From sequence record PQ871103.1: a stretch of 64,000 bases of DNA, one strand, 5' to 3'. The DNA comes from Escherichia phage vB_Eco_ZCEC15. A model generated the notes under the pieces. The model made no database searches. It was not told the origin of the DNA and saw only the letters and a program-made list of their open reading frames with translations. Numbering within the stretch: position 1 is the stretch's first letter; every line of letters starts with the position of its first letter. The translations under genes were made by a program, and so were the position numbers. This document shows, in pieces, positions 4,453 to 52,358 of the stretch.

Positions 4453-5295
4453 TTAATCAACTGCTATTGGATGAATAGCATTAAACTTATGAAATGCTTC
4501 TGATTTTTCTTTGCGCGAAACACACATGCGAAGAACCTTTAATGGCTCGTCTTCTTCACCCAACGATTTTCTCTTTTCAATATTCGATGTTTTCCAACGA
4601 GCTTGCTCTGGAAACTCTCTATTGATTTGCTCAAGAGCTCTATTATGTTTTGAATTACTACGAATTGAACTGCACCCGCCCGGAGCCTGTGCTTTTCCAG
4701 ATACAACCAGATATTTGAACAGGGCCAAATGCGGATAACCTTGATTAATTAAATTGAGAAATGCATACATATCTTCGCATAAATCAATTTTTCCATACCC
4801 AATTTGTTCTGTTGTAAGTTTTCCGAGGTCATACCATGTATTCGTGAATCCATATGAATTTTCACGATAATTACCCCAAGATGAAGTAATTTTAAAAATT
4901 GGTAAACGAGCATGACCATGATAATACCCGCAATCCATGGCATCTTCAACGTATTGAATCAATTCATAGAACTGTTCACGAGTTAACTGATTAATTTTAT
5001 CTACGCAGCGACGATCATCTTTCTTTCGCATTGAACTCATACGAATAGTAGTATCATCATCAATCATCCAAATTCGTTGACCTGCATACATATCAGTAAT
5101 TGCTTTACGAGTACCGGCAATTCCGTTTACATCATCAGGAATAGTTATAATTTTAGCTCTAGACCCATAGGCATCATAATAAGCTTTTTCTTCATGTTCA
5201 CGCACTACAATATGGGGTTCATAATCAGTCGGAAACATATCAAGGGCAGAAACTGCCCCGACACGCTGATAACTTGGAATTACGAATTGAATCAT
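4453..5295 (-). CDS. GT-A fold glycosyltransferase, 280 aa (candidate beta-glucosyl-HMC-alpha-glucosyltransferase of T2/T6 type)
   Basis: N-terminal VIPSYQRV and DxD motif IWMIDDD typical of GT-A enzymes; occupies the locus of T4 beta-gt but is unrelated in sequence. Confidence 0.6.
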   Translation of the reverse strand: MIQFVIPSYQRVGAVSALDMFPTDYEPHIVVREHEEKAYYDAYGSRAKIITIPDDVNGIAGTRKAITDMYAGQRIWMIDDDTTIRMSSMRKKDDRRCVDKINQLTREQFYELIQYVEDAMDCGYYHGHARLPIFKITSSWGNYRENSYGFTNTWYDLGKLTTEQIGYGKIDLCEDMYAFLNLINQGYPHLALFKYLVVSGKAQAPGGCSSIRSNSKHNRALEQINREFPEQARWKTSNIEKRKSLGEEDEPLKVLRMCVSRKEKSEAFHKFNAIHPIAVD

Positions 5296-5933
5296 TTAAG
5301 TGCCTTACATTTGTCAAAATGGTATCTTGTCATATTTGGCCCACGTCCTTTTAGTCCGCAATGCGGACATATTTTTTCTATCAAATTATGAGGTTTTCCT
5401 TTACGATTTTTAGACATCGTTTCTTTAATTATTTTAGCTTTTTCTGCGCCAAAAATTTCTTCATAAGTTTTACCAGAATTTTCCTTTGCTCGATTTATAA
5501 TTCCATATGCCTGCTCATTTTTACCATACATTGGATTACCTTCGCCTTTCATTCTTTTAGAATGATCAGGACGCTTGATTCCACGAAAGGCATTTCCGCA
5601 CTTATATCTTTCTTCTGGAGATAGTTTTTTACCGTACATTCCATTTAATTTGCCTGGAAAACTTCCTCCCCATGCTTCATTCTTTAAATTATATGAATCC
5701 GGACAATTAGCAGCATCTAAACAAGTTAAAATAATTTCTTCAACCTGTCTAAACATTGGTCCTTCATATAATATTTCTTTATTAAAGGATTTTATTCCAT
5801 ATTTCTTTTTAGCATGTTGCCAAACTACACCCGAACCATCATAATTTGGGTTGTGACCATCATGACTTCCTATATACCACTTTTTAGTTTTAGGATGTTT
5901 ATACTTATAAACATGTGGCACATTTACTTCCAT
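5292..5933 (-). CDS. GIY-YIG homing endonuclease (seg-like), 213 aa, C-terminal zinc finger
   Basis: VYKY...WYIGS GIY-YIG motif, NUMOD3-like G-K-x-S/P-E repeats, C-terminal CPHCG...RYHFDKC. Confidence 0.75.
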   Translation of the reverse strand: MEVNVPHVYKYKHPKTKKWYIGSHDGHNPNYDGSGVVWQHAKKKYGIKSFNKEILYEGPMFRQVEEIILTCLDAANCPDSYNLKNEAWGGSFPGKLNGMYGKKLSPEERYKCGNAFRGIKRPDHSKRMKGEGNPMYGKNEQAYGIINRAKENSGKTYEEIFGAEKAKIIKETMSKNRKGKPHNLIEKICPHCGLKGRGPNMTRYHFDKCKALK

Positions 5934-6664
5934 TTTCCAGTATAATCCTTTTTAGCAATATGAGTTTCACCAGTGTTCCACCAATGGTCAACTAAATAAA
6001 ACTGATTTTCGTACACATGAAGACTTCCAACGTTCCATATAATAGAACCTGCTTTATATTGCCGCGATGGGTCGCCTGCATTCAAATCAGATACTAATTT
6101 ATCTAGTACGTATTTTTGCCATGCATAATCATTACGATAGCCTGCCCAGCAGTCATTGCTTCTCATATTAACAACTGCATTGACTTTCTTGTCACGAATC
6201 AGATACTGTACGGTATTCGTACACATGAAATCTGACATACCATCTTTATTGTAGTCAAACTGCATAGATGGACGAGTATAAATCATGATACCACGTCGAG
6301 AATCAGGATTTTGACCAAGTTCAGCTAAACACATATCATACTGGGCATAGTTATCTTCTGACCAGATGGCCCAACCATAATTCGAGTTAATTTCGCCTTT
6401 AGAAGATGCTACCTGCTGCCAAATCTTCGGTGTTTCACCCGGAATATCTTTAACAAACAAACTTTTAGATTTATACCATTCAAGTTCACGTTGAATGTAT
6501 TCATCATTAAGAGCGCCAAAAATAAACGGTTCATCTGCTACAAATGATGCGCCAATAATTTCAATAGTTTTAACGCCAGTTTTATCAACTACGAAATCTT
6601 TTTCCTTTAATGCAAGCCCCAAATGAAGACGGATTTCTTCAACTGTCATAGAGTCACTAATCAT
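5924..6664 (-). CDS. 42: dCMP hydroxymethylase gp42, 246 aa
   Basis: Sequence and length match T4 gp42. Confidence 0.95.
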   Translation of the reverse strand: MISDSMTVEEIRLHLGLALKEKDFVVDKTGVKTIEIIGASFVADEPFIFGALNDEYIQRELEWYKSKSLFVKDIPGETPKIWQQVASSKGEINSNYGWAIWSEDNYAQYDMCLAELGQNPDSRRGIMIYTRPSMQFDYNKDGMSDFMCTNTVQYLIRDKKVNAVVNMRSNDCWAGYRNDYAWQKYVLDKLVSDLNAGDPSRQYKAGSIIWNVGSLHVYENQFYLVDHWWNTGETHIAKKDYTGKWK

Positions 6665-13991: not shown

Positions 13992-14708
13992 ATGAATTAT
14001 AAACTAATTTATGAAAAGTTAATCTCTAATGCTAAATCTCGAAAACTTGATTGCTATACTGAATCTCATCACATTATACCACGCTGTTTAAATGGTAGCG
14101 ATGATGCTTCAAACTTAGTAGATTTAACACCAGAAGAGCACTATGTAGCTCATCAACTTTTAGTAAAAATTTATCCTTCTGAACCAAAATTAGTCTATGC
14201 TGCTAACATGATGACAGTTTCTACGAAATACGCTAAACGTAACAATAAAACTTTCGGCTGGATTCGTCGTAAACTCTGGGAAATAGAAAAGAATAAAGAG
14301 TTCTCCCAAGAGACACGAAAGAAAATGTCCGACGCAGTAGCTAATAAAGCAAGACTAACTTGTCCACATTGCGGTAAGTCTGGATTAAGCGGGAATATGA
14401 ATCGATGGCATTTTGATAACTGCCCAAATCATCCCAATCCTAAAGTTAGACCGCCAATGTCTAAAGAACACAGAAATAATATCTCAAACGGACTTAAAGC
14501 AATCGTTCTTGAAGAAACATCCTGCGAATTCTGCGGAATGATAGGCAAGAAATGCGTTATCGCAGCGCATAGAAATTTCTGCAAGAAAAATCCAAATGGA
14601 CGCAAGAAAACTGAAAAGACTGGTACTTGCGTCCATTGTGGTAAAGTTACCACTTTCGGAAATTTATCAAGATGGCATAATGATAATTGTAAATATAAAC
14701 CTAGCTAA
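13992..14708 (+). CDS. HNH homing endonuclease, 238 aa, three C-terminal zinc-finger repeats
   Basis: HNH core ESHHIIPRCLNGSDDASNLVDLTPEEHYVAH; opposite strand to flanking genes; absent from this position in T4 as I recall. Confidence 0.8.
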   Translation: MNYKLIYEKLISNAKSRKLDCYTESHHIIPRCLNGSDDASNLVDLTPEEHYVAHQLLVKIYPSEPKLVYAANMMTVSTKYAKRNNKTFGWIRRKLWEIEKNKEFSQETRKKMSDAVANKARLTCPHCGKSGLSGNMNRWHFDNCPNHPNPKVRPPMSKEHRNNISNGLKAIVLEETSCEFCGMIGKKCVIAAHRNFCKKNPNGRKKTEKTGTCVHCGKVTTFGNLSRWHNDNCKYKPS

Positions 14709-16649: not shown

Positions 16650-16836
16650 TATCTAAAATGTTGAAGTTAAAAGATACAGCCCAATCTGTACAGACCGTAA
16701 CCTTTTTAATACAATTATCTTCAACCTCTAACGGTTCAAACCAGTATTCAATAGTTTCTTTATGCCCAATATCATCTTTTACTTCGCATTCAAAATGCTG
16801 ACTCATCATAACATTTTTAAATTCATCAAAAGTCAT
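16573..16836 (-). CDS. hypothetical protein, 87 aa (46.2 position)
   Basis: ORF track; stop overlaps gp47 start. Confidence 0.5.
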   Translation of the reverse strand: MTFDEFKNVMMSQHFECEVKDDIGHKETIEYWFEPLEVEDNCIKKVTVCTDWAVSFNFNILDNDTPKSLQDMAVSCIKDAYCEVFDI

Positions 16837-17852
16837 TGTGTTGCCTCTACATATAACTGATTTGCATATTGAATAAGTGCTTCACGGTCAGAATCAGTGA
16901 TGTCTGGAATTGCATTAATGTATTCTTCCATCAATGTCTGAAGCGATTGAACTTCAACTTCTTCACTGTCATCTGACTCGACAGAGTTATCAATCTTTGA
17001 CACAACTCGTAATGAATGCACAACTTTTTCTAGTTCAGATTCGAACTTCGTTAGATTTTTGTCTACTTCAGTTACTATAACACGTACTGATAGATTTGTA
17101 AAATCTTTATAGTCAATTTTTCCTTTAAATGGATAATGAATTCTACGATGCCAGGTAGTGTTGTTTGGAATAAATTCCATTCGTTCTGTTTCTGTATCAA
17201 ACATCCAGAACCCGCGAGGGTCATTCTCGTCACCTGCAGTTAGTGTCCATGGTGTCCCAATATATCTGACGTTAGCAGCCTCAGAGATAGTATGGAAGTG
17301 ACCAGACCACACCTCTTTATAAGTCTTAAGGAAATCAGGTTCAAGACCGTGAGATTTCATTCCTTTATAAAAATAAAATCCATTCAGTTCCCAGTGACCA
17401 ACACAAAAAGAAGCAGATGAAGTTTTGATGTGTTCAAGAATTTCACCAGTATTTTCTTCGCACATCCAAGGAATTAAATCAATCAAACATCCGTCAAAAT
17501 CTACTGTAGTAGGCTTATCATATACTTCAACATTAGGATATTTAGCCAAAAGCTCAGTAGAAGCATTTGGATGCATTACATTTTTGTAGTGGAGATCGTG
17601 ATTTCCTACAATAGTATGTAATGTGATTCCAGCGTCATCAAGCATTTGAACTATTTCACGGGCAAACTCCATTGTTTTATGCGTGATCGCTTTTCGCACA
17701 TCAAAAATATCACCATATTGAATCCATACAGTAATTCCATTTTTCTTAGAATATTCTATCGCTTGCTTAATTCCATCAATTTGAATACCGCGAATCCACT
17801 CATCATCAGCTTTAACGCCTAAATGCCAATCACCCAAGTTTAGTATTTTCAT
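16833..17852 (-). CDS. 47: recombination nuclease gp47 (Mre11-like phosphoesterase), 339 aa
   Basis: Calcineurin-like motifs (GDWH, GNHD, GHxH); length as T4 gp47. Confidence 0.95.
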   Translation of the reverse strand: MKILNLGDWHLGVKADDEWIRGIQIDGIKQAIEYSKKNGITVWIQYGDIFDVRKAITHKTMEFAREIVQMLDDAGITLHTIVGNHDLHYKNVMHPNASTELLAKYPNVEVYDKPTTVDFDGCLIDLIPWMCEENTGEILEHIKTSSASFCVGHWELNGFYFYKGMKSHGLEPDFLKTYKEVWSGHFHTISEAANVRYIGTPWTLTAGDENDPRGFWMFDTETERMEFIPNNTTWHRRIHYPFKGKIDYKDFTNLSVRVIVTEVDKNLTKFESELEKVVHSLRVVSKIDNSVESDDSEEVEVQSLQTLMEEYINAIPDITDSDREALIQYANQLYVEATQ

Positions 17853-17962
17853 GGTGTCTTTTCCATCCTAATTTAGCTGCTTTTGAAACCAGTTCTTTAA
17901 TTTTTCCTTTTGTCCATTCAGGACCAGGAGGTTCATGACATAACATTTGCTTAACTCCGTTA

Positions 17963-18454
17963 TTATACCATTTTTTTACCTTTATTATGTGATGAAGCTT
18001 TAAATTTATTTGACCTTCCTTTTACATAACCTTTTGGAATATAAGGCAAAAAGGCAGATTTTCCTGTTAATGGATCATGTGAATGTATATTTCCTTTACA
18101 ATTATGAGAACCATATAATGGATGATTTTGTCCTTTATTATCTCTTCCAAATGAACCTTTTGGAGCAGCATATGACATATTAAAGAATAATGGATTTTTA
18201 ACTGCATCATGCAATCGTTGATAATATAACTCGCATTTAATAGCTTCTTCACGCGTATCAAATTCAGCTAAAATGCATGAATCAAATAAGTGAGGATTAT
18301 CTGAAAGCTCTTTATTATAAATTTTCTTATACTTTTTAGATAAAACTGAACCATGATATCCAGCTAAATGCCTATCTAAAGACGTAGATCCAATATAAAA
18401 AGGAGGAAGTTTATCTCCACTATATATTGTTAAATAAGTTATATATTTTTTCAT
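17963..18454 (-). CDS. GIY-YIG homing endonuclease-like protein, 163 aa
   Basis: YLTIYSG...FYIGST and FDSCILAEFDTREEAIKCELYYQ resemble the I-TevI catalytic core; NUMOD3-like repeats. Confidence 0.75.
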   Translation of the reverse strand: MKKYITYLTIYSGDKLPPFYIGSTSLDRHLAGYHGSVLSKKYKKIYNKELSDNPHLFDSCILAEFDTREEAIKCELYYQRLHDAVKNPLFFNMSYAAPKGSFGRDNKGQNHPLYGSHNCKGNIHSHDPLTGKSAFLPYIPKGYVKGRSNKFKASSHNKGKKMV

Positions 18455-18591
18455 ATATCAAGAACCGTCATTGAAATGCAAAATAAAATTATTGAAATAA
18501 ATCCATCTGGAGTGCTAAAAAACCCAACCCAACATGCTCTAGTGAATAGATAAAATGCGAGAAAAAGTATCACATATCCAAGAAATATCAT
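18451..18591 (-). CDS. small hydrophobic protein, 46 aa (own translation)
   Basis: ATG at 18591, TGA overlapping ATG of downstream GIY-YIG gene (ATGA coupling); not in ORF track. Confidence 0.3.
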   Translation of the reverse strand: MIFLGYVILFLAFYLFTRACWVGFFSTPDGFISIILFCISMTVLDI

Positions 18592-18614
18592 TATATCAAA
18601 CTCCGTATAAAGCT

Positions 18615-18632
18615 AAAGGGCCGAAGCCCTTT
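18615..18632 (-). repeat. UUCG-tetraloop hairpin (aaagggccgaagcccttt) at a-gt stop codon
   Basis: Inverted repeat with cgaa loop. Confidence 0.5.
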
Positions 18633-19833
18633 ATTTTGTAATAATGTCAAACTGTTCTTTAAAGCAGAAGCTTGAATCTTGATGCTGATACAAAAATTCA
18701 TAAGCTTTTTCGCGTTCACGGTCATAAAGATTTCGGTCAGATGACAGTTCTTTAATACGCTCAAATGTTGATTCCATGTCATTTTCATCAAACCAAACGA
18801 TACCGCTATCATGAGAAATTAACGGAGTATTATCAACACGGAATTTTAAATTTTCGCCAGTAGATTTCCAAAATACTGGAATTGTTCCACACGCACCAAG
18901 CTCGAGATGAGTATATTCTAAAGAACGTTGTAGATATTTTTTATCCAACTTACTCAACTGATAACCAAAACCGGATTTACTCATGCGTTCAAGCATTTCG
19001 CTATTTACATAACGATCAAGAATTTGCGTTGGCAAATTAGGAGCAATTTTAATTTGGTCTACTTGATGAAGACGATAATACTCGTATGGAATTCCTTTTT
19101 CTTTAATAGGAATGAACGCTGGAGAACGTTCCAGACCTTCCATAATAGTACTTAGTCCTGCAGGTTTAAGATGTTTTTCGTGAAAATCAAACATCTGATA
19201 AAAACCTTTCCATGTAGTCGTACGACCAATCCAACGGTTAACATTCATGTTAATTTCAGAAACATCTTTCCAGTAGGTTGACCGAACCTTCGCAATATCC
19301 ATAGGAGGCTGAAAGTTATATACTGTCGGTGCTTCTTCAATATCATCAAACAGAGAAACAGTTTCTGGATACCATTCTTTCATCAGAACTTTATTAAAAT
19401 CACCATTATCAGAATGACTAAAAATAACATCAGCTCGACGAACAGTTTCTTCTAATCCCAAATTTCGACGCAAAGAAAGAGAAGAATGGTCATGTTGATA
19501 AACTACAACACGAACAGAAGGTTTAATGTTATCAATAATTTTTTTATAGTTATTAATAGTGTCTTCTTCAACCGAAGTAGCAGGAACTGAATTGATAATT
19601 AGAATATCACAATCATTTACCAGCTTAAGTGTTTTATCATATTCTTTTGCCAATAAAACCGGAATTGAAAATGATTTATAATCATGCGCGCAATTACGAG
19701 TAAATGATTTATCTTTAGCATAAACCAAAGTTACTTCATGACCATTCTTAATAAACCAATCACGTTGCTCAAGAGAAAATTTAGTTACACCACAACCTTC
19801 AAGACCTCGAGCCATAAAAATACATACTTTCAT
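18631..19833 (-). CDS. a-gt: alpha-glucosyltransferase (a-gt), 400 aa
   Basis: N-terminus and length match T4 alpha-gt. Confidence 0.95.
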   Translation of the reverse strand: MKVCIFMARGLEGCGVTKFSLEQRDWFIKNGHEVTLVYAKDKSFTRNCAHDYKSFSIPVLLAKEYDKTLKLVNDCDILIINSVPATSVEEDTINNYKKIIDNIKPSVRVVVYQHDHSSLSLRRNLGLEETVRRADVIFSHSDNGDFNKVLMKEWYPETVSLFDDIEEAPTVYNFQPPMDIAKVRSTYWKDVSEINMNVNRWIGRTTTWKGFYQMFDFHEKHLKPAGLSTIMEGLERSPAFIPIKEKGIPYEYYRLHQVDQIKIAPNLPTQILDRYVNSEMLERMSKSGFGYQLSKLDKKYLQRSLEYTHLELGACGTIPVFWKSTGENLKFRVDNTPLISHDSGIVWFDENDMESTFERIKELSSDRNLYDREREKAYEFLYQHQDSSFCFKEQFDIITK

Positions 19834-19883
19834 TTAATATCCTCTTTGTTTTGGTTTATTTTACCAAAAATTTATAAAGCAAT

Positions 19884-19903
19884 ATAGGAGCCGAAGCTCC
19901 TAT
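19884..19903 (-). repeat. hairpin ataggagc-cgaa-gctcctat upstream of a-gt
   Basis: 8-bp inverted repeat with cgaa loop. Confidence 0.45.
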
Positions 19904-20076
19904 CCACATAATACGCCATACAGAGGCTCGTTAGAACTTTTAAATTTTATGCGCTTATATTTTATAGTTCCTTCTGCTTTAGCTTTATCATGAGACGCTT
20001 TAAAGAGTCTCATCATTTCCTCTTTAGAGGAACGAATTTTATTATAATCTATTTCAGAAGTCTGGGTGTTCATCTT

Positions 20077-20283
20077 TCATAACTGCCACCATTTTTTGAC
20101 TTGATAAGAATCAACCCACACTTTCATATTAGGGTCTGCTCTTACAATAGGAGGATTAACTTCTTTAATTGAACTATCATGGTATTCTTTTTCAGAAATT
20201 TTCACACAAAGATGACCATTCAAAGATTCAGTAAATCCTGCATTAATTTTAAGACGCTTGAATTTTACGTGTGTAAGCATCAA
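20077..20283 (-). CDS. hypothetical protein, 68 aa
   Basis: ORF track. Confidence 0.5.
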   Translation of the reverse strand: MMLTHVKFKRLKINAGFTESLNGHLCVKISEKEYHDSSIKEVNPPIVRADPNMKVWVDSYQVKKWWQL

Positions 20284-20566
20284 TCATATCCTCAATTTGC
20301 GATCTAGTAGTCTTCCAAAGAATACTGATGAGTTCATCGTTATATGGCTGTTTTAGAATATCCCGACTTTTCTTGATAGCATATTCGTATTGAGCAAAAT
20401 TATTGTTTTCAGCTGCAATCTGAGCGTGCTTATAAAGACGGTTCAGTTCGCGTTTGTTTTTAGACAATAACTTATTTGCTTTTCTTTCTGCTTCAAGACG
20501 GTTCTTTTCTTCAATAGAAGAAATAAGCTTTTCCACTTCATCATTAATTTCGGGTTTATCAGTCAT
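20249..20566 (-). CDS. hypothetical protein, 105 aa
   Basis: ORF track. Confidence 0.55.
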   Translation of the reverse strand: MTDKPEINDEVEKLISSIEEKNRLEAERKANKLLSKNKRELNRLYKHAQIAAENNNFAQYEYAIKKSRDILKQPYNDELISILWKTTRSQIEDMIDAYTRKIQAS

Positions 20567-21911: not shown

Positions 21912-22217
21912 TCAGCAAATTTTTTTCTTGCGTTGATTTTTCATACGACGAATAGTTTTATCGGAAATTTCATGCTTTTGATAAGCTTTAGATTCTACAC
22001 CAAAAGCTTTAACATCAAATTCTGACAAGATATATTGAACCAACAATTCGCGGACAGTATTGCGTCCAATCTTCTGATCGTTTTGTTTCATCGTCTGATG
22101 AAGCTCTTTTTCCCATTTATCCAAAATTTGAGGAGTTACAATATCGCCTTTTTCTAGCAAAGAAACCACTTTATCATATGCGTAAGAATTGATGGCGTTT
22201 TTAATTTGAATAGTCAT
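21912..22217 (-). CDS. hypothetical protein, 101 aa (55.x)
   Basis: ORF track. Confidence 0.55.
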   Translation of the reverse strand: MTIQIKNAINSYAYDKVVSLLEKGDIVTPQILDKWEKELHQTMKQNDQKIGRNTVRELLVQYILSEFDVKAFGVESKAYQKHEISDKTIRRMKNQRKKKIC

Positions 22218-27748: not shown

Positions 27749-28138
27749 TTAATTTCGCAATTTATTAAGTTCTTCATAATCAATCCAGGATTCTAGTCCT
27801 GATGGCAAATCAGATTCAATTTCCCAAAGAAGTTCTTCAATTTTCTGAAGACGATCTAATTCTTCAGCAGGAATAGTAACCATTGACGGAGTTCTTGATA
27901 CGCTAATATCGTAAATCATATTTACCCCCAGTTTGACCATACAATCGCCATATTTCCATTTAGAAATAGACTTTTCACCATTAGAATAATAAACTTCAAG
28001 TTTAGCACGATTATTTTTAATTTGAATAACCTTTGCTGTCATCAAAGTTCCATACCCATAATAAACTGTAACCTCATCACCTACATATACCGCGCTTCCG
28101 CGGTAGTCATGGATATAATCAGTTCCTTCGAGCATCAT
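27749..28138 (-). CDS. hypothetical protein, 129 aa
   Basis: ORF track. Confidence 0.55.
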   Translation of the reverse strand: MMLEGTDYIHDYRGSAVYVGDEVTVYYGYGTLMTAKVIQIKNNRAKLEVYYSNGEKSISKWKYGDCMVKLGVNMIYDISVSRTPSMVTIPAEELDRLQKIEELLWEIESDLPSGLESWIDYEELNKLRN

Positions 28139-51692: not shown

Positions 51693-52358
51693 TTAAAATT
51701 TCATTTTTCTACCTTTAAACCATCCTTCTGGAATTGGGTCAGTTTTCTTAATACGTTTAGAAACTTTTTCATCTAATGAATGAATCCACATCATACCAAA
51801 TTGGGAATTCTTTTCACCTTGTTGGTGTTTATTTTTGGCGTGAGATTCTTTCATTTTATTAATAGTTTCAGGAGTATGATGCTTATTTAAAAATCTGCTA
51901 TTATTTAAAAATTTTTCCCTGTATTCAGGAGTTGACCACAAACGTTTAAATACATTTGAACCATGTTTACGATATTTTTCTTGAAGTAAAATATCATTTT
52001 TAAAACGTGACTTAAACGATTTAGCTCCTTTTAAACTAGCGTCTTTCTTCTGATTTAGCATCTCAGGAATATTTATATGGTCCCATCCACCTTCACCACC
52101 AAGTTTTAAATTATACACATCTGGTCTATTTAAAAACTCTTCTGTGACAATATTTTTCTCGGCTTCAAGCATAGATTCTTTATCATCAAAATACTCTAAT
52201 ATTTCTTTAGAGAAATTTTCTATACCATACTTGTCTTGGGCTCTTTTTAATAATTTACCAGAACCCATATATCCATCATCTAAATTTTCGGTAGAATGCA
52301 CACCAATATAAATTTTATTATTAATTTTATTTGTTATTTTATAAGTGTAATGGAACAT
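51693..52358 (-). CDS. segB: GIY-YIG homing endonuclease SegB, 221 aa
   Basis: YTYKITNKINNKIYIGVHS motif; sits between tRNA subclusters as in T4. Confidence 0.85.
   Translation of the reverse strand: MFHYTYKITNKINNKIYIGVHSTENLDDGYMGSGKLLKRAQDKYGIENFSKEILEYFDDKESMLEAEKNIVTEEFLNRPDVYNLKLGGEGGWDHINIPEMLNQKKDASLKGAKSFKSRFKNDILLQEKYRKHGSNVFKRLWSTPEYREKFLNNSRFLNKHHTPETINKMKESHAKNKHQQGEKNSQFGMMWIHSLDEKVSKRIKKTDPIPEGWFKGRKMKF

Follow-up and report, generated by a model that had tools for sequence, protein, structure and literature searches.

A putative Seg-like GIY-YIG homing endonuclease gene, probably decayed, between genes 47.1 and 47 of a T4-like phage

The window analysed in this work, a stretch of 64,000 nucleotides from a Tequatrovirus (T4-like) genome, harbours between genes 47.1 and 47 an additional gene that is quite probably a free-standing, Seg-like GIY-YIG homing endonuclease gene (HEG), established at a fixed site in a minority of Tequatrovirus phages and present here as what is most likely a decayed copy. 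The existence of an extra GIY-YIG endonuclease-like gene at this locus, put forward in an earlier note on the same DNA, is confirmed by our analysis: T4 has no gene of any kind at the corresponding position, and thus no conserved non-nuclease homologue there.

Layout of the locus

All the genes of the locus lie on the minus strand, where they follow the order a-gt, hairpin, 46-aa ORF, 163-aa ORF, 38-aa ORF, gene 47, 46.2, 46.1 and gene 46. The features relevant to the analysis are as follows:

18631..19833, minus strand: a-gt (alpha-glucosyltransferase), the upstream neighbour
18614..18633: hairpin after a-gt
18451..18591, minus strand: gene 47.1, 46 aa, a small predicted membrane protein (T4/RB5 annotations; PHROG 6693, E=1.8e-31)
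17853..18454, minus strand: HEG cassette, 602 bp, a clean 602-bp gap in the alignment with T4
17963..18454, minus strand: truncated endonuclease ORF, 163 aa (207 aa in intact homologues)
18164..18454, minus strand: GIY-YIG domain, approximately residues 1-97, with a linker and the first beta-hairpin module after it
17971..17977, minus strand: poly-A run, A7 (T7 on the plus strand), the site of the frameshift; A6 in intact copies
17830..17946, minus strand: leftover ORF of 38 aa, residues ~170-207 of the 207-aa endonuclease
17835..17846, minus strand: codons 3-6 of gene 47, ATA CTA AAC TTG, a candidate cleavage-resistant form of the homing site
16833..17852, minus strand: gene 47 (SbcD/Mre11-like recombination nuclease subunit), the conserved neighbour of the cassette and its presumed target gene

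The cassette is inserted exactly between the stop codon of gene 47.1 and the start codon of gene 47, where T4 lacks precisely these 602 bp, and a 7-nt repeat (ATGAAAA) is found at both of its ends, at the start of the HEG and at the start of gene 47. The 1.2 kb around the locus are matched by 516 phage records, the best of which are Shigella phages ESh16 and ESh34 (99.2%), and over a wider region of 22 kb no record matched above ~97%.

The hydrophobic 46-aa ORF had been regarded in the earlier note as coupled to the endonuclease. The ORF and the overlap of its stop codon with the endonuclease start (ATGA) are indeed there, but the role of partner does not stand: gene 47.1 is found in identical placement in T4 and RB5, which have no endonuclease at this point, and hence it must be seen as a resident T4 gene. 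In T4, the 47.1 stop likewise overlaps the start of gene 47. This arrangement suggests that the endonuclease would be translated within a coupling chain leading from 47.1 to 47, with its ATG overlapping the 47.1 stop and its own stop lying inside gene 47. No sigma-70 promoter signal above shuffled expectation was detected for the endonuclease gene, the search of the locus against Rfam returned no match, and RNA structure at the 47.1/endonuclease junction was no better than in shuffled sequences (z=0.83).

Family, fold and catalytic residues

The 163-aa product matches PHROG 10820 with E=1.6e-79 and the Pfam GIY-YIG profile with E=1.4e-4, exactly at the gathering score, and the intact protein (P0001) attains 20.6 bits against the Pfam profile, under its cut-off of 22.6 bits. 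An AlphaFold model of an intact homologue, computed with 32 homologues as input, has a mean pLDDT of 85 (mostly above 90 over residues 1-100) and displays the alpha/beta fold of GIY-YIG proteins, a three-stranded sheet flanked by helices; the fold search returned GIY-YIG proteins only. Taken together, the Pfam and PHROG 10820 matches and the AlphaFold model make the fold assignment a sound one. Among the other ORFs of the window, only SegB was found by an HMM of the N-terminal domain of the family (E=3.4e-4), and hhalign aligned this domain to the SegB of the window with a probability of 92.8% (E=4e-7).

A close resemblance of the catalytic core to that of I-TevI, as had been proposed, survives at the level of the fold but not at that of sequence. 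No PDB chain was matched by the intact protein (phmmer) or by the family profile (HMMER), and hhalign against I-TevI left the N-terminal domain unaligned and matched only a NUMOD3-like C-terminal stretch, with a probability of 16%. A search of IMG/VR yielded no relative of the endonuclease protein.

Of the 32 homologues, 17 combine the N-terminal domain with NUMOD3, and other relatives have it joined to an I-TevI-type zinc finger or to an I-HmuI NUMOD-like module. This joining of one N-terminal domain to varied DNA-binding modules is the modular pattern of homing endonucleases. Judging from its sequence, the most fitting description of the protein is that of a free-standing GIY-YIG endonuclease, Seg-like and with a family of its own, PHROG 10820. 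The RefSeq/PHROG label of this family is "HNH endonuclease" (e.g. NC_054916, NC_054933); neither an HNH/beta-beta-alpha-Me motif nor an HNH Pfam match was found in it, and the label is a misnomer. Another database label already attached to the gene is "putative homing endonuclease". In our literature search, neither the PHROG 10820 subfamily nor any endonuclease gene ahead of gene 47 was found described. As a gene of a known kind that is as yet uncharacterised, it is an ordinary find in a T-even genome.

The Tyr, Tyr, Glu and Asn residues of the GIY-YIG set are all four present in the window ORF. Across the 32 homologues, which extend down to ~35% identity, the invariant positions are Y7, T9, Y11, G13, Y20-I21-G22-S23, Y33, G35, S39, E75 and N92, and K40, Y42 and R68 are nearly invariant. 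With regard to the catalytic Arg and Glu that the earlier note had singled out, the Glu is well supported by the invariance of E75, but the canonical Arg cannot be placed. R28, near the position expected from R27 of I-TevI, is variable (R, K, N, Q or E across the family), the R27 helix of I-TevI comes out as an insertion in a MAFFT alignment, and hhalign sets R39 of SegB opposite K41, beside the near-invariant K40. An unusual and improbable possibility is that the PHROG 10820 family constitutes a GIY-YIG lineage in which a Lys (K40) stands in for the canonical Arg.

Distribution, mobility and target site

The cassette is present in 68 phage records, and 436 of the 504 records matching the junction have an uninterrupted 47.1/47 junction; about one in eight T4-like phages carries the endonuclease gene just upstream of gene 47. 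As in Seg-like genes, presence and absence are thus polymorphic at a fixed intergenic site. Partial matches in KNP1 and KNP5 were considered as internal deletions of the cassette and rejected, for they correspond to a run of N's at an assembly gap.

Among eight copies of the cassette, 5 of ~622 positions vary, against 13 variable positions in the adjacent 180 nt on the upstream side (47.1). Downstream, HEG-bearing sequences do not differ at all in the first 100 nt of gene 47, and their diversity regains the background level by ~150-250 nt. To judge by these sequences, the pattern resembles that of an element that has been spreading recently, with co-conversion confined to short tracts. By analogy with SegB, SegF and SegG, the 207-aa enzyme would cut the endonuclease-free allele during a mixed infection, at or near the 47.1/47 junction or in the first codons of gene 47, and T4 recombination would then mend the break with the endonuclease-bearing genome as template, so that the cassette is copied together with the first ~100 bp of gene 47. 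Cleavage of the carrier genome would be prevented by the insertion itself and by four synonymous changes in codons 3-6 of gene 47.

These codons read ATA CTA AAC TTG in all eight HEG-bearing sequences examined and ATT TTA AAT TTA, the T4 type, in all 11 of the HEG-less sequences sampled, which amounts to four synonymous differences within 11 bp, directly beside the insertion. The presumed target in HEG-less phages hence differs from the HEG-linked sequence, next to a flank with apparent co-conversion, and the variant codons occur also in at least seven phages with an empty site. These were identified by searching the phage records with a synthetic query, an empty junction with variant codons, which was matched at 100% by SHFML-26, Ec_YwIITB1, BCPEco_001 and BCPSen_003 and at 99% by three more; in SHFML-26 (L025, 1201..1297) and Ec_YwIITB1 (L027, 1201..1297) the variant codons come directly after 47.1, with no endonuclease. 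The cassette was never encountered beside T4-type codons in the sequences examined, and this is the pattern that would be expected if the T4-type sequence were the cleavable target.

The alleles of SHFML-26 and Ec_YwIITB1 are candidates for a cleavage-resistant or a post-loss state. Variant-type empty sites could equally be products of loss, since a deletion between the ATGAAAA repeats gives exactly this junction, and the codon variant could reflect ancestry rather than resistance, as it appears in empty sites as well. With the variant-type empty sites, the alleles at this locus come to four: T4-type empty, variant-type empty, intact element and broken element.

Three other T4-like groups, represented by Klebsiella phage SmallBear, Dhakavirus QL01 and Mosigvirus AV109, have homologues of the same architecture (60-70% identity) directly ahead of gene 47, and in QL01 and AV109 there is no a-gt beside them. 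Hence, the constant partner of the endonuclease is gene 47 and not a DNA-modification gene, and the proximity to a-gt, which the earlier note had pointed out, is incidental. According to one paper (PMC8056088), variation near the base-modification genes of Tevenvirinae is mostly a matter of putative homing endonuclease genes being present or absent, a finding that covers the earlier remark on DNA-modification neighbours. Other members of the family have settled elsewhere: in Yersinia phage TG1 a 44% homologue precedes the topoisomerase gene, and some phages have several copies, with Agrobacterium phage OLIVR6 presenting them in five places. On the far side of a-gt, T4 has the HNH gene mobB (L002, 3091..3599), and in its place the window (19834..20300) has only small ORFs (a-gt.2-like and others); the surroundings of a-gt thus hold different selfish genes in different phages.

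A different view of the gene would make it a domesticated protein of GIY-YIG fold, non-mobile and catalytically incompetent, that acts as a DNA-binding regulator or as a translation spacer for gene 47. Most close relatives, T4 included, do without such a protein, and its position tied to one target gene across genera and the sweep-like diversity speak against this view. The canonical Arg is admittedly not identifiable (R28 is variable, and the Arg of SegB falls opposite K40/K41), Pfam support is borderline and the gene forms part of the 47.1-47 coupling chain, all of which domestication would accommodate. Nonetheless, the Y/Y/E/N residues are invariant over deep divergence, the domain is tied to nuclease-type DNA-binding modules and frameshifted copies are tolerated, and we consider domestication highly improbable. 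A mobile, Seg-like homing endonuclease gene is the reading retained below.

The frameshift in the window copy

The intact homologue of phage PaulHMueller, annotated as "putative homing endonuclease", is a CDS of 624 nt (207 aa) that reaches 23 nt into gene 47. Compared with it, the window has one extra A (A7 versus A6 at 17971..17977) and reads GGT AAA AAA ATG GTA TAA TAA, where intact copies have GGT AAA AAA TGG TAT AAT AAC. The protein changes from ...HNKGKKWYNNG... to ...HNKGKKMV-stop, and the ORF ends at residue 163 of 207. The 44 C-terminal residues cut off in this way are part of the presumed DNA-binding region and comprise, in the predicted model, the second beta-hairpin (161-172) and the C-terminal helix (186-203); by this model, the loss would amount to about half of that region. 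Intact members of the family combine an open frame with catalytic and DNA-binding parts, and the window copy does not. As it keeps the catalytic domain but has lost the second beta-hairpin module and the C-terminal helix, the window copy is most likely inactive or crippled, a recently decayed allele. We know of no trans-acting helper for it.

The severed end is still recognizable in the 38-aa ORF, which agrees throughout with the 3' end of the PaulHMueller gene and matches the last 24 positions (191-214) of the PHROG 10820 profile; the annotation of ESh16 shows the same split into two ORFs. For annotation, the 163-aa and 38-aa ORFs are to be treated as one disrupted gene, of which 47.1 is not a part. 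Since a GGAG lies 9 nt ahead of the ATG of the 38-aa ORF, and the stop of this ORF is again situated 23 nt into gene 47, the frameshifted allele may retain the coupling to that gene.

The A7 run is found also in ESh16, ESh34 and ESh36, on a different haplotype. Of the 60 HEG-bearing records listed, all have the 601-nt (A6) length except these three and KMB22, the cassette of which (600 nt) has another indel, and the endonuclease gene is intact in three independent Logan assemblies. In all other respects the window cassette belongs to the haplotype of KNP5, PaulHMueller and G2540, at most one SNP apart, and the ESh16/36 allele is separated from that of the window by 3-4 SNPs, located on both sides of the A-run. 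A change from IPEGY to IPKGY (E to K) was considered as private to the window and rejected, being common to KNP5. With A7 on two distinct haplotypes, the extra base either arose twice or was mis-read twice.

On the whole, we find it rather likely that A7 is a real mutation. Runs of six A's are the textbook frameshift hotspot of T4 (Streisinger model), and ESh30 and ESh31, which stem from the same study as ESh16, read A6, which argues against a systematic platform bias at the A-run. The opposite reading, in which the frame is really open over all 207 aa and the extra A came into the window through a sequencing or assembly error at the homopolymer, is possible but doubtful. It draws on the nature of the site, a homopolymer of 6-7 nt, on the absence of the extra A from every one of the 60 HEG-bearing records listed besides ESh16/34/36, and on the fact that these three A7 GenBank records are flagged UNVERIFIED; the exact 163-aa product was also absent from a large protein collection, and the window has another nearly private +1, in the T-run at 21920. 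Against an error, the large essential genes of the window are intact, and a further +1, at 27925, is natural, being common to five independent phage genomes.

The extra A could also be envisaged as a leaky or regulated frameshift, in which a +1 slip of tRNA-Lys on AAA-AAA-A, or slippage of RNA polymerase, would still yield a little full-length enzyme and so keep a toxic nuclease at a low level. A +1 shift after AAA AAA would re-pair perfectly on AAA and read TGG TAT AAT AAC, the intact frame, and the occurrence of A7 on two different haplotypes would fit such a device. However, no stimulatory structure or motif was found (folding was no better than in shuffled sequences, and there was no Rfam match), a run of seven A's is short for slippage to be efficient, A6 prevails overwhelmingly and plain mutational decay explains the data, all of which renders this scenario extremely unlikely. 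We attach little credence, too, to the idea that the A6 tract is a recurrent on/off slippage site, switching or throttling the toxic nuclease and gp47 expression, and not a site of plain decay. Such a switch could touch gp47 as well because the endonuclease gene sits in the translational-coupling chain feeding this essential recombination nuclease. Plain decay of a formerly intact homing endonuclease gene is thus the explanation we favour for the window copy.

Other insertions and indels in the window

Another insertion polymorphism is found at 5292..5933 (minus strand; insert ~5298..5927), at a gene that the earlier note had likewise counted as GIY-YIG, where ~630 bp are missing in ESh16 and G2540. 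The insert sits between gene 42 (5924..6664) and a gene for a 280-aa glucosyltransferase (4453..5295, minus strand). Its product has a Seg-like N-terminus, a NUMOD3 match (E=0.0026) and a sub-threshold TIGR01453 match (E=1.5e-5), and gave no match to Pfam GIY-YIG. As for the glucosyltransferase beside gene 42, its length may point to a second glucosyltransferase of T2/T6 type, the beta-gt of T4 being 351 aa long.

At 13992..14708 (plus strand), an ORF of 238 aa is convergent with gene 46 and overlaps its 3' end by 8 nt. The ORF is present in G2540 and absent in ESh16, which has 73 nt in place of ~787 nt, and it encodes an HNH-like motif (ESHHIIPR...N...EEHYVAH) and repeated CxxC...H..C modules. 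The ORF probably represents a Mob-like HNH homing endonuclease gene; if so, the 46-47 block would be bracketed by selfish elements.

Two single-base indels were noted in other homopolymers of the window. At 27925 (C5 run), an extra C/G relative to G2540 and ESh16 merges two overlapping ORFs, of 71 aa and ~58-64 aa, into one frame; the variant is common to five other phages (UGKSEcP2, Killian, EPIMAM01 and others), and it is therefore a natural polymorphism. At 21920 (T7 run), an extra A on the coding strand relative to G2540, ESh16 and nearly all of the 502 matching records swaps the last 9 residues of a 109-aa ORF (…KKKFADLKIAKV to …KKKIC-stop), and may be either a private mutation or a homopolymer error. 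The notion that the window assembly is generally prone to homopolymer errors was rejected: of its three +1 indels, one is natural, one is shared with the ESh phages and one is nearly private.

Comparison with known systems

The closest parallel to the cassette is offered by the Seg proteins of T4. Intronless homing by Seg endonucleases has been documented (PMC2330249; for background, see PMC1564403), and SegB, the counterpart of which in the window lies at 51693..52358, is an experimentally proven endonuclease (PMC2330249). Like the T4 Seg genes, the cassette gene is free-standing and intergenic in a T-even genome, encodes an N-terminal GIY-YIG domain with the motif 'YIG..(x)..GYxGS' and a small modular C-terminal part, and combines presence/absence between related phages with short apparent co-conversion of a flanking conserved gene. 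It departs from them in belonging to a separate sequence family, PHROG 10820, in being absent from T4, in lacking a Pfam NUMOD3 match in the subfamily of the cassette and, with respect to SegB, in having Lys-Lys at the position of the Arg.

The relationship to I-TevI, encoded in the T4 td intron, is more distant. The fold is common to both, but similarity between the catalytic domains went undetected by HMMER and hhalign, the R27/H31 helix of the I-TevI arrangement is missing from the cassette endonuclease, the DNA-binding region is different and the gene is not intron-encoded.

The window copy can also be placed among decaying HEGs. The truncated I-TevIII in nrdB of T4 provides a precedent for a defunct homing endonuclease (PMC1865063, PMC2790892), and a cycle of invasion, decay and loss of homing endonuclease genes is described in PMC13619312. 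As in decaying HEGs, the window copy has a frameshift that, from its sequence, is presumably inactivating, intact copies circulate in sister phages, and empty sites with a resistant-looking sequence exist. Unlike them, the decay in the window consists of a single homopolymer base, a change that may have recurred and may be artefactual.

Free-standing homing endonuclease genes abound in T4-like phages, and one more is unsurprising. The value of the present case is modest and lies in the prospect of following a whole homing-endonuclease life cycle at a single locus in sequenced phages, through four allele types: susceptible-looking empty, resistant-looking empty, intact and apparently recently spread, and frameshifted. 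It also offers a candidate for a new Seg-type enzyme that would be convenient to test, with a target that can be predicted (the 47.1/47 junction), inasmuch as the cassette adjoins gene 47, the product of which acts in the very recombination that homing relies on.
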